A stretch of 8,264 bases of DNA from a virus (taxonomy: Duplodnaviria; Heunggongvirae; Uroviricota; Caudoviricetes): the IMG/VR virus record IMGVR_UViG_2529292759_000009. One strand, given 5' to 3'. A program made the translations under genes and the position numbers. The notes beneath the pieces were generated by a model, which did not search any database, was not told the origin of the DNA, and worked only from the letters and a program-made list of their open reading frames with translations. This document shows, in pieces, positions 2,865 to 6,307 of this stretch; the first letter of the stretch is position 1; every line of letters begins with the position of its first letter.

Positions 2865-3383
2865 ATGGCAATGCCGCGCAAACTCAAATACATGAATGTC
2901 TTTCTGAACGGCTACAGCTATCAGGGCGTTGCAACGTCCGTCACGCTGCCAAAACTGACCCGTAAGCTCGAAAATTATCGCGGTGCGGGGATGAACGGCA
3001 GCGCACCGGTAGACCTCGGCCTTGATGACGATGCGCTGTCAATGGAGTGGTCGCTCGGGGGGTTCCCGGATTCGGTTATCTGGGAGCTTTACGCTGCAAC
3101 CAGTGTTGATGCCGTACCGATTCGTTTTGCTGGTTCTTACCAGCGCGACGATACCGGCGAAACGGTGGCCGTCGAAGTGGTCATGCGTGGGCGTCAGAAA
3201 GAAGTCGACACCGGAGAGGGTAAACAGGGAGAGGATACCGAATCGAAACTCCCGGTGATTTGTACTTATTTCCGGCTGACGATGGACGGTAAGGAGCTGG
3301 TCGAAATCGACACCATCAACATGATTGAGAAGGTGAACGGCGTCGACCGGCTGGAGCAACACCGCCGTAATATCGGCCTGTGA
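2865..3383 (+). CDS. FII: Tail tube protein (P2 gpFII)
   Basis: 172-aa ORF starting MAMPRKLKYMNVFLNGYSYQGVATSV.... AGGAG at 2852-2856 overlaps the FI stop and lies 8 nt before the ATG. Position immediately after the sheath gene fits a tube protein. Confidence 0.92.
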   Translation: MAMPRKLKYMNVFLNGYSYQGVATSVTLPKLTRKLENYRGAGMNGSAPVDLGLDDDALSMEWSLGGFPDSVIWELYAATSVDAVPIRFAGSYQRDDTGETVAVEVVMRGRQKEVDTGEGKQGEDTESKLPVICTYFRLTMDGKELVEIDTINMIEKVNGVDRLEQHRRNIGL

Positions 3384-3391
3384 TTTTCATA

Positions 3392-3410
3392 CGGTCAGCC
3401 AGGCTGACCG
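3392..3410 (+). other. Perfect inverted repeat (RNA hairpin) in the FII-E intergenic region, with no U-tract
   Basis: CGGTCAGCC (3392-3400), A, GGCTGACCG (3402-3410): 9-bp perfect arms, or 8 bp with a 3-nt loop. It lies 9 nt after the FII stop and is followed by gttaaccctg, not a T-run. Confidence 0.5.
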
Positions 3411-3439
3411 GTTAACCCTGATTCAGAAGTGAGAAAAAC

Positions 3440-3715
3440 ATGAACAAAGAAAATGTCATTACCCTGGACAATCCGGTCAAACGTGGTGAGCAGGTTATCG
3501 AACAGGTCACGCTGATGAAACCTAATGCCGGGACGCTTCGCGGAGTCAGTCTGGCTGCGGTCGCGAACTCCGAAGTCGATGCACTGATTAAAGTGCTGCC
3601 GCGCATGACGGCACCGATGCTGACCGAGCAGGAGGTCGCCGCGCTGGAGCTGCCTGACCTTGTGGCGCTGGCCGGTAAGGTGGTCGGTTTTTTGTCGCCG
3701 AACTCGGTGCAGTGA
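3440..3715 (+). CDS. E: Tail assembly chaperone gpE (zero-frame product)
   Basis: 91-aa ORF MNKENVITLDNPVKRGEQVIEQV...VVGFLSPNSVQ ending at TGA 3713-3715. It sits between the tube and tape measure genes, where the tail chaperone pair is found. Confidence 0.9.
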   Translation: MNKENVITLDNPVKRGEQVIEQVTLMKPNAGTLRGVSLAAVANSEVDALIKVLPRMTAPMLTEQEVAALELPDLVALAGKVVGFLSPNSVQ

Positions 3716-3867
3716 CGTTTCCGAAAAATCTCTCGGTCGATGACCTGATGGCGGATGTGGCAGTGATATTTCACTGGCCGCCATCAGAACTGTATCCCAT
3801 GAGCCTGACCGAACTCATCACATGGCGCGAAAAGGCGCTCCGGCGAAGCGGAAACACGAATGAGTAA
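3440..3867 (+). CDS. E+E': Tail assembly chaperone gpE+E', made by a programmed -1 ribosomal frameshift at 3688-3694
   Basis: The slippery heptamer T TTT TTG (3688-3694) sits in zero-frame codons GGT TTT TTG. After a -1 slip, reading continues from 3694 (GTC) through 57 codons, VAELGAVTFPKNLSVDDLMADVAVIFHWPPSELYPMSLTELITWREKALRRSGNTNE, to TAA at 3865-3867. That gives 142 aa, overlapping the T start (ATG 3860) by 8 nt. This matches the P2 E/E' arrangement as I recall it. Confidence 0.8.
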
Positions 3868-6307
3868 CAATGTAAAATTACAGGTATTGCTCAGGGCTGT
3901 TGACCAGGCATCCCGCCCGTTTAAATCCATCCGTACAGCGAGCAAGTCGCTGTCGGGGGATATCCGGGAAACACAAAAATCACTGCGCGAGCTGAACGGT
4001 CACGCATCCCGTATTGAGGGATTTCGCAAGACCAGTGCACAGCTCGCCGTGACTGGTCATGCACTTGAAAAGGCTCGGCAGGAAGCCGAAGCCCTTGCCA
4101 CACAGTTTAAAAATACCGAACGACCGACCCGTGCTCAGGCGAAAGTGCTGGAATCCGCAAAGCGTGCGGCGGAGGACTTACAGGCGAAATATAACCGCCT
4201 GACGGATTCCGTTAAACGCCAGCAGCGGGAACTGGCCGCTGTGGGAATTAATACCCGCAATCTTGCACATGATGAGCAGGGACTGAAAAACCGTATCAGT
4301 GAAACCACCGCACAGCTTAACCGTCAGCGTGATGCGCTGGCGCGTGTCAGTGCGCAACAGGCAAAACTTAACGCAGTCAAACAGCGTTATCAGGCCGGAA
4401 AGGAACTGGCCGGAAATATGGCCTCAGTGGGCGCTGCCGGTGTGGGGATTGCGGCGGCGGGAACGATGGCCGGTGTTAAGCTGCTGATGCCAGGTTATGA
4501 GTTTGCGCAGAAAAACTCAGAATTGCAGGCCGTGCTCGGTGTGGCAAAAGACTCCGCCGAAATGGCTGCACTACGCAAGCAGGCGCGTCAGCTCGGCGAC
4601 AATACCGCAGCCTCGGCAGATGATGCAGCCGGTGCGCAGATTATTATTGCGAAAGCCGGTGGGGATGTTGATGCCATTCAGGCGGCAACGCCGGTCACGC
4701 TGAATATGGCACTGGCGAATCAGCGGTCGATGGAAGAAAACGCCGCCCTGCTGATGGGGATGAAATCCGCCTTTCAGCTTTCAAACGATAAGGTCGCTCA
4801 TATCGGGGATGTTCTCTCCATGACGATGAACAAAACCGCCGCCGATTTTGACGGTATGAGCGATGCGCTGACCTATGCCGCACCTGTGGCAAAAAATGCC
4901 GGTGTCAGCATTGAAGAAACCGCCGCAATGGTCGGGGCGCTGCATGATGCAAAAATTACCGGTTCAATGGCGGGGACGGGAAGCCGTGCCGTGTTAAGCC
5001 GCCTGCAGGCACCGACGGGAAAAGCATGGGATGCACTGAAAGAGCTTGGTGTGAAAACCTCAGACAGTAAGGGAAACACCCGGCCAGTATTTACCATTCT
5101 GAAAGAAATGCAGGCCAGTTTTGAGAAAAACCGGCTCGGTACTGCCCAGCAGGCTGAATACATGAAAACCATTTTCGGGGAGGAGGCCAGCTCAGCCGCC
5201 GCCGTGCTGATGACTGCCGCCTCAACCGGAAAGCTGGACAAACTGACCGCTGCGTTTAAAGCCTCAGACGGAAAGACCGCAGAGCTGGTAAATATCATGC
5301 AGGACAACCTCGGCGGTGACTTTAAGGAGTTTCAGTCCGCTTATGAGGCGGTGGGGACTGACCTGTTTGACCAGCAGGAAGGCGCACTGCGTAATCTCAT
5401 GCAGACAGCCACAAAGTATGTGCTAAAACTCGACGGCTGGATCCAGAAAAACAAATCACTGGCGTCAACCATCGGCCTCATTGCCGGTGGCGCACTGGCG
5501 CTGACTGGCATCATCGGTGCCATTGGTCTTGTAGCCTGGCCGGTTATCACCGGCATCAATGCCATTATCGCGGCAGCAGGCGCAATGGGGACAATCCTCA
5601 CGACGGTTGGCAGTGCTGTTATGACCGCTATTGGGGCGATTAGCTGGCCGGTTGTGGCTGTGGTGGCCGCCATTGTCGCCGGGGCGTTGCTTATCCGTAA
5701 ATACTGGGAGCCTGTCAGCGCATTCTTTGGCGGTGTGGTGGAAGGGCTGAAAGCGGCATTTGCGCCGGTGGGGGAACTGTTCACGCCACTTAAGCCGGTG
5801 TTTGACTGGCTGGGAGAAAAGTTACAGGCCGCGTGGCAGTGGTTTAAAAACCTGATTGCCCCGGTTAAAGCCACACAGGACACCCTGAACCGTTGCCGTG
5901 ACACGGGCGTCATGTTCGGGCAGGCACTGGCTGACGCGCTGATGCTGCCGCTTAATGCGTTCAACAAACTGCGCAGTGGTATTGACTGGGTACTGGAAAA
6001 ACTCGGTGTTATCAACAAAGAGTCAGACACACTTGACCAGACCGCCGCAAGGACTAATGCCGCCACGTATGGCACCGGTGGTTATATTCCGGCGACCAGC
6101 TCTTATGCAGGCTATCAGGCTTATCAGCCGGTCACGGCACCGGCTGGCCGCTCTTATGTAGACCAGAGTAAAAACGAATATCACATCAGCCTGCCGGGTG
6201 GTACTGCGCCGGGGACACAGCTTGACCGCCAGTTACAGGATGCGCTCGAAAAATACGAGCGGGATAAACGTGCGCGCGCCCGTGCCAGCATGATGCATGA
6301 CGGTTAA
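3860..6307 (+). CDS. T: Tail length tape measure protein (P2 gpT)
   Basis: 815-aa ORF with a charged, Ala/Gln/Arg/Lys-rich, coiled-coil-like N-terminal third (...KRAAEDLQAKYNRLTDSVKRQQRELAAVG...). A long Gly/Ala/Ile-rich hydrophobic stretch is encoded at about 5456-5695. Location after the frameshifted chaperone pair is typical of tape measure genes. Confidence 0.93.
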   Translation: MSNNVKLQVLLRAVDQASRPFKSIRTASKSLSGDIRETQKSLRELNGHASRIEGFRKTSAQLAVTGHALEKARQEAEALATQFKNTERPTRAQAKVLESAKRAAEDLQAKYNRLTDSVKRQQRELAAVGINTRNLAHDEQGLKNRISETTAQLNRQRDALARVSAQQAKLNAVKQRYQAGKELAGNMASVGAAGVGIAAAGTMAGVKLLMPGYEFAQKNSELQAVLGVAKDSAEMAALRKQARQLGDNTAASADDAAGAQIIIAKAGGDVDAIQAATPVTLNMALANQRSMEENAALLMGMKSAFQLSNDKVAHIGDVLSMTMNKTAADFDGMSDALTYAAPVAKNAGVSIEETAAMVGALHDAKITGSMAGTGSRAVLSRLQAPTGKAWDALKELGVKTSDSKGNTRPVFTILKEMQASFEKNRLGTAQQAEYMKTIFGEEASSAAAVLMTAASTGKLDKLTAAFKASDGKTAELVNIMQDNLGGDFKEFQSAYEAVGTDLFDQQEGALRNLMQTATKYVLKLDGWIQKNKSLASTIGLIAGGALALTGIIGAIGLVAWPVITGINAIIAAAGAMGTILTTVGSAVMTAIGAISWPVVAVVAAIVAGALLIRKYWEPVSAFFGGVVEGLKAAFAPVGELFTPLKPVFDWLGEKLQAAWQWFKNLIAPVKATQDTLNRCRDTGVMFGQALADALMLPLNAFNKLRSGIDWVLEKLGVINKESDTLDQTAARTNAATYGTGGYIPATSSYAGYQAYQPVTAPAGRSYVDQSKNEYHISLPGGTAPGTQLDRQLQDALEKYERDKRARARASMMHDG

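Follow-up and report, generated by a model that had tools for sequence, protein, structure and literature searches.

Recoding of the tail assembly chaperone gene by a -1 frameshift is conserved among long-tailed phages, and in phage P2 the E' extension is reportedly essential and is added to gpE by a -1 shift at a frequency of roughly 10%. The P2 shift occurs at the heptamer TTTTTTG and yields, from one start codon, a 91-aa E protein and a 142-aa E+E' protein, and the shift site is kept in the P2-like phages of Burkholderia (PMC3091744). The same paper cites Christie et al. (2002) and Xu et al. (2004) for the P2 frameshift. In the P2 records NC_001895 and AF063097, gene E is accompanied by a two-piece joined CDS named E+E', which is annotated as 'shares amino terminus with gpE; -1 frameshift; essential tail protein', and in both records the 'site of -1 translational frameshift' is marked as a misc_feature. 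The lambda gpG/gpGT pair (Levin et al. 1993; Xu et al. 2004) is likewise encoded by two overlapping ORFs located between the major tail/tube and tape-measure genes, and a fusion is made in minor amounts when ribosomes slip by -1 shortly before the first ORF ends; the pair is presumed to act as a tape-measure chaperone and as a recruiter of tube subunits. In lambda, the tape measure is bound by the domain that G and GT share and the major tail protein by the T domain, and the two products must be made in the right ratio, which is crucial (review, PMC5009743). The P2 group differs from lambda in the efficiency of the shift, which is reported to be 2-3 times that of lambda G-T in P2 and its relatives (PMC5009743), and in the contractile tail of P2.

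The locus examined here lies within an 8,264-nt stretch of viral DNA (the window; IMG/VR record IMGVR_UViG_2529292759_000009), in which the ORFs are collinear with the annotated P2 tail operon in the order FI-FII-E-T-U-D, with tail-fibre genes also represented. Gene E (3440-3715, + strand, 91 aa) was recognised from the ORF list and its translation, from a match to Pfam PF10109 and from its correspondence to the P2 protein NP_046781. Its upstream neighbour is gene FII, encoding the tail tube (2865-3383, + strand), and it is followed by gene T, encoding the 815-aa tape measure (3860-6307, + strand), both assigned from the ORF list and P2 annotation. The chaperone pair thus sits between FII and T and completes an order of tube, chaperone pair and tape measure. 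Over positions 3400-3900 the DNA is 97.8% identical to that of phage P2 and up to 98.4% identical to that of other Peduovirus phages, and megablast of this region returned 74 phage records with 95-99% identity, all of them P2-like (Peduovirus) and with hosts in Escherichia, Yersinia and Salmonella.

The comparison of the conceptual 142-aa E+E' product with P2 gpE+E', which the original prediction had proposed as a check, was carried out and found 141 of 142 residues to be the same, the single difference being asparagine here and serine in P2 at residue 29. At the nucleotide level, positions 3650-3867, which hold the slippery site and the whole of E', are identical to P2 without a single difference, and nine nucleotide differences, silent or near-silent, are located in 3523-3649. 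The locus therefore shares with the P2 gpE/gpE+E' system (FETUD operon; Christie et al. 2002) the same genes, the same gene order, the same phase of TTTTTTG and the same 91-aa and 142-aa products, and none of the differences from P2 (residue 29, the nine nucleotides and fun(Z)) touches the frameshift. The last of these, fun(Z), is a 1.6-kb lysogenic-conversion gene of P2, located between the tail-fibre genes and FI on the other strand, and is absent from the window; the gap between the 175-aa ORF at 1006-1533 and FI (1662-2852), at 1534-1661, is only about 130 bp and carries no fun(Z) cargo. In addition, the first 810 or so bases of the window, within the C-terminal part of a tail-fibre ORF (16-1002), gave no megablast alignment to P2 or R18C.

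To judge from gene order and identity, the window is the tail operon of a phage or prophage of the P2 type. Among 5426 complete E. coli genomes, 1587 carry the FII-E-E'-T junction region with at least 95% identity, in up to three copies each, so that P2-like prophages, by this sequence measure, are present in about 29% of sequenced E. coli strains. The E/E+E' frameshift at this locus is already known, having been described and annotated for P2 itself; as a discovery it carries no weight, since it is textbook P2 biology and an instance of conserved tail-chaperone recoding.

Gene E runs from ATG 3440 to TGA 3713-3715 and its end reads ...GTC GGT TTT TTG TCG CCG AAC TCG GTG CAG TGA. It contains, at 3688-3694 (+ strand), the slippery heptamer T_TTT_TTG in X_XXY_YYZ phase, which is the same as the annotated P2 site of the -1 shift and whose TTG lies 7 codons 5' of the E stop codon. 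When base 3694 is read twice, the -1 frame continues for 57 sense codons, VAELGAVTFPKNLSVDDLMADVAVIFHWPPSELYPMSLTELITWREKALRRSGNTNE (VAELGAV...SGNTNE), and closes at TAA 3865-3867. This E' extension (3694-3867, + strand), identified by translation and by a match to PF06528, forms the C-terminal part of E+E' only. The composite coding region, join(3440..3694, 3694..3867) on the + strand, spans 3440-3867, specifies 142 aa and is joined in the same way in the P2 records. The E' stop overlaps the start of T (ATG 3860) by 8 nt (ATGAGTAA, 3860-3867). The sequence therefore bears out what had been predicted from it: a heptamer in zero-frame phase 7 codons before the E stop, and a -1 frame that is open for 57 codons and ends just inside T. 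The further claim, that the arrangement is the conserved tail-chaperone frameshift of long-tailed phages and of P2 specifically, is upheld by the P2 records, by the near-identity to P2 and by PMC3091744.

A coincidence of heptamer and open frame, without any function, has in its favour that the bare TTTTTTG is not over-represented, since the two strands of the window together hold four of them where 2.2 would be expected. The long ORFs of the window (2531 codons) contain 11 in-phase X_XXY_YYZ heptamers; after the heptamer in E the -1 frame stays open over 57 codons, as against at most 15 codons after the others. The combination of an in-phase heptamer with a long open -1 frame is therefore unusual in the window, unlike the heptamer alone. 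Among the other heptamers are several A-rich ones in the tail-fibre-assembly-like ORF at 1006-1533, such as A_AAA_AAG (1356-1362), which is the best -1 shifter in E. coli, and A_AAA_AAA (1068-1074). The -1 frame after the heptamers of this ORF closes within 7-15 codons, and a slip would only truncate the protein; they are probably incidental to the AT-rich composition of the gene.

Both parts of the composite product belong to described protein families. Gene E matches PF10109 (Phage_TAC_7; 'tail assembly chaperone proteins E, or 41 or 14') over residues 7-85 with a score of 47 bits (cut-off 25; E = 2.6e-12), and the -1 ORF matches PF06528 (Phage_P2_GpE) with a score of 78.7 bits (cut-off 23; E = 2.1e-22), both matches passing the gathering score. 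E also matches phrog_103 ('tail protein') at E = 3.8e-43. These two Pfam families were the only ones found at E <= 0.01, with no match to a lambda gpG or gpT family, and neither a search of PDB sequences at E <= 1 nor one of NCBIfam gave a match. Lambda gpG/gpT and the E/E' pair of the window are therefore without a detectable sequence relationship, and the class that holds them is defined by synteny and recoding. In every testable respect the sequence of the locus is that of a member of the P2 gpE/gpE+E' family, which would belong functionally to the lambda G/GT class.

Taken together with the P2 annotation, the sequence indicates that the locus almost certainly encodes the P2-type tail assembly chaperone pair gpE and gpE+E', made by -1 ribosomal frameshifting. 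None of the observations speaks against this reading. Ribosomes would initiate at ATG 3440 and the majority would stop at TGA 3713 to give the 91-aa gpE. A minority would slip back by one base on T_TTT_TTG, where tRNA-Phe and tRNA-Leu would pair anew in the -1 frame, and would read 57 more codons to TAA 3865 to give the 142-aa gpE+E'. Tandem slippage would produce GFLVAELGAVTFPK at the junction (...VVGFLVAELG...), and slippage of a single tRNA-Phe on U_UUU would produce GFFVAELG.... By analogy with lambda gpG/gpGT, the common E domain would serve to bind gpT, the tape-measure protein, and the E' domain, present on a fraction of the molecules, would recruit tail-tube subunits; it is from this analogy that we infer the binding partners of the E and E' domains in P2. 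A constant frequency of shifting would fix the ratio of E to E+E' that, on the same model, correct tail assembly requires. Given that the signal is nucleotide-identical, we infer, on good grounds, that the production and essentiality of E+E' in P2 apply to this locus as well.

When 50,697 phage records were searched by tblastn with the 142-aa fusion as query, 418 matched, of which 401 covered at least 80% of the query, and among the matches listed the two pieces fall in two reading frames. Fifteen diverse Peduoviridae with 29-77% amino acid identity (including 186, Salmonella RE2010, Pseudomonas Dobby and phages of Klebsiella, Yersinia, Burkholderia, Ralstonia, Mannheimia and Aeromonas, as well as a Zymomonas plasmid-prophage) all carry, close to the end of E, a heptamer in X_XXY_YYZ phase, and in all 15 the -1 frame is open from the heptamer to the start of the tape-measure gene. 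The heptamer is TTTTTTG in ten of them, the others having TTTTTTT, TTTTTTC, AAATTTT, GGGAAAG and CCCTTTC. Phage 186 (orf51/orf52, gene H) has the same architecture and the same TTTTTTG as the window, as do the E/E' pairs of Burkholderia KS5, KS14 and KL3 and of the phiCTX-like and RSA1-like phages. The E' proteins of 186 and these other Peduoviridae are 45-75% identical, whereas the N-termini of their E proteins differ, their zero-frame tails after the site range from 6 to 22 codons within the T6 group and from 2 to 22 across all 15, and only some of the clades have an SD-like element upstream.

A wider set of 179 distinct loci remained after removal of duplicates from bacterial genomes and IMG/VR and spans many genera; it was drawn from 80 prophage loci of different bacterial species, retrieved with an E' alignment, 80 IMG/VR loci retrieved with the Dobby E' query and 44 retrieved with the RsoM1USA E' query. 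The E' query from Aeromonas Ahp2 gave no match in IMG/VR. In-phase T_TTT_TTN, together with an open -1 frame, is present in 178 of the 179 loci, with G as the last base in 166, A in 6, C in 4 and T in 2. The sole exception, in Enterobacter sp. EA-1 (L047; CP025776, around position 795), has a run of five T, GGTTTTTGTC, which reflects either a one-base deletion in a decaying prophage or a homopolymer sequencing error; the shortened run puts the remainder of E in the +1 frame. The original prediction would have been overturned by relatives with a disrupted heptamer or early stop codons in the -1 frame, and this search, with both features intact in 178 of 179 loci and in 15 of 15 diverse phages, leaves it standing.

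The heptamer is also constrained at sites at which the protein sequence is indifferent. Among 77 distinct enterobacterial sequences, the synonymous sites of the heptamer codons are frozen: glycine is GGT in 72 of 72, phenylalanine is TTT in 77 of 77 and leucine is TTG or TTA but never CTN. Nearby conserved residues vary synonymously, for example aspartate, which is GAC in 39 and GAT in 38. The contrast between frozen heptamer sites and freely varying neighbours indicates that the signal is selected as a nucleotide sequence and not only as protein. The PF06528 match, the conservation in 178 of 179 loci and the frozen synonymous sites together refute a chance origin, which is scarcely credible.

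The composition of the site invites the alternative of transcriptional slippage, in which RNA polymerase would add an extra U on the six T residues and some mRNAs would carry E and E' in frame. The site is homopolymeric, and the invariant glycine codon GGT lengthens the run. Runs of U7 and A7 are avoided in all frames, possibly owing to transcriptional slippage, and in E. coli reporters ribosomes shift only weakly on U_UUU_UUG (PMC4066793). Against this, the two-frame relatives with GGGAAAG, AAATTTT and CCCTTTC have no run of six bases and fit only tandem tRNA slippage. Six bases are also short for efficient polymerase slippage. The event is called translational in the P2 records and in PMC3091744. 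The heptamers of these distant relatives suggest that tandem tRNA slippage fits the family and that a homopolymer-dependent mechanism does not, and polymerase slippage is highly unlikely to be the source of E+E' here.

Ribosomal frameshifting also has to be weighed against the view that E' is a separate small gene, translated from ATG 3748 (39 aa) or GTG 3712 (51 aa), with the heptamer incidental. Both start-like codons lie in the E' frame, GTG 3712 being the one used in the ORF list and ATG 3748 the one used by PGAP, in whose annotation of E. coli genomes the equivalent of ATG 3748 starts a 'GpE family phage tail protein' of 39 aa that stands alone. A separate E' has been called in many phage records and PHROG families for such ORFs exist, and the SD-like score 5' of ATG 3748 (-5.3 kcal/mol) is no worse than that of the start of E itself (-5.1). 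However, the codon at 3748 is not a start in four relatives, being GCC in RsoM1USA, GTT in Kp4845-1, GAA in Ahp2 and ATT in a Mannheimia phage, and in the window this ATG lies within the 5' arm of a hairpin of -24.8 kcal/mol. Moreover, independent initiation gives no account of the -1 frame that runs uninterrupted back to the heptamer in every relative examined, nor of the frozen synonymous sites of the heptamer, and the P2 record states that E+E' shares the amino terminus of gpE through a -1 frameshift and is essential. An independently initiated E' is accordingly very improbable indeed.

As regards annotation, the original prediction, which held that E+E' is invisible to ORF calling, stands in part: RefSeq and many phage records contain no joined CDS, but E' itself is called as a gene of 39-51 aa. 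The accompanying statement that E' has no start codon of its own and would be missed or taken as non-coding does not agree with the presence of GTG 3712 and ATG 3748, and the usual miscall is a separate small gene. In E. coli SaT040 (L222; NZ_CP014495, 649-768) E' is annotated as a free-standing protein, and the phage loci L005-L016 are annotated likewise. Two protein families, phrog_1756 and phrog_6416, appear to have been built from truncated or mis-started E' ORFs. The practical value of the locus lies in annotation, as RefSeq and many phage records split the region into a 'phage tail assembly protein' and a 39-aa 'GpE family phage tail protein'; the fault is widespread, given the 1587 of 5426 E. 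coli genomes noted above, and trivial.

With -1 ribosomal frameshifting as the preferred reading, the means by which the shift is stimulated may be considered. In reporters in E. coli, UUUUUUG shifted at 0.118% without a stimulator, at 0.247% with IS911 stimulators and at 0.765% when the IS3 pseudoknot was present (Sharma et al. 2014; PMC4066793 supplement), so that even the IS911 context, SD included, lifts UUUUUUG only to 0.25%, and this heptamer was outside the 21 patterns searched in gene families (PMC4066793). These rates are far below the efficiency reported for P2. The E. coli dnaX and the IS911 and IS3 signals resemble the window in having an X_XXY_YYZ heptamer after an SD-like sequence, but they also have a downstream structure, whereas the site in E is without one and its SD-like element is a candidate stimulator only. 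The 60 nt at 3695-3754 fold no better than shuffled sequences (z = -0.01), and no hairpin or pseudoknot was found in the window fold at the usual spacing of 5-9 nt after the heptamer. Downstream RNA structure was also reported to be absent from P2 and its Burkholderia relatives (PMC3091744). Since U_UUU_UUG is intrinsically weak (0.1-0.8%), the P2-type site may owe its efficiency to an upstream stimulator.

A candidate for such a stimulator is the SD-like sequence AGGTGGTCG (3678-3686, + strand), which was picked out by anti-SD pairing and conservation. Its 3' end is about 2 nt 5' of the heptamer and its AGGTG part about 6 nt upstream. It is the strongest anti-SD pairing in the whole body of E (-12.2 kcal/mol, rank 1 of 267), and the anti-SD profile of 77 distinct enterobacterial prophage loci has a single sharp minimum at its offset, with a mean of -11.2 kcal/mol and with pairing of -6 kcal/mol or stronger in 97% of the loci. 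The codons beneath it are nearly invariant synonymously (lysine is AAG in 63 and AAA in 1; valine is GTG in 70 and another codon in 5), and AGGTG is kept even where the lysine is replaced by glutamine (CAG) or glutamate (GAG). In the window and the 15 diverse relatives taken together, the best SD-like 9-mer of the gene is located 6-22 nt 5' of the heptamer in 11 of 16 sequences, with differing encoded residues. The GC-rich clades from IMG/VR reach -8 kcal/mol or stronger in 24 of 65 distinct loci and are strong only in the phiCTX-like and RSA1-like lineages; the element is also present in Aeromonas relatives and is weak in other GC-rich clades. Conservation of its synonymous sites extends over the enterobacterial, phiCTX-like and RSA1-like lineages. 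An experimentally stimulatory class of SD-like elements has been described as AGGKG located 6-17 nt before the motif's second base (PMC4066793), and the six nucleotides between AGGTG (3678-3682) and the motif's second base (3689) place the element of the window at the short edge of that range. On the strength of these patterns, AGGTG(A/G)TC about 6 nt 5' of the heptamer is tentatively proposed as an upstream stimulator of the shift, a role that is possible but rather doubtful. Such a stimulator is possibly new, and the primary P2 paper may already mention an SD-like element.

A strong hairpin within the coding sequence of E' (3745-3787; CTGATGGCGG ... CAGTGA-TATT-TCACTG ... CCGCCATCAG, -24.8 kcal/mol) begins 50 nt after the site, which is too far for it to influence a ribosome positioned on the heptamer. 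In a 100-nt context it has a z of -3.3. Across 70 distinct relatives, 93% of cells are paired, compensatory change is seen in only 5 cells, and the hairpin overlaps the most conserved residues of E'; it is lost in more distant phages.

The position of the E' stop also bears on the translation of gene T. No SD-like sequence was found upstream of the T start (ATG 3860), the best pairing there being -3.7 kcal/mol. In nearly all relatives the E' stop either adjoins the T start or overlaps it, and the stop of E lies 145 nt upstream of the T start. Translation of T may be coupled to the termination of frameshifted ribosomes and not to the bulk of ribosomes stopping at E, which is a weaker idea than that of the SD-like stimulator; if true, coupling would tie the dose of the tape measure to that of E+E'. 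Gene U (ATG 6322), by contrast, is preceded by a near-perfect SD, AGGAGGTGA, with a pairing of -15.2.
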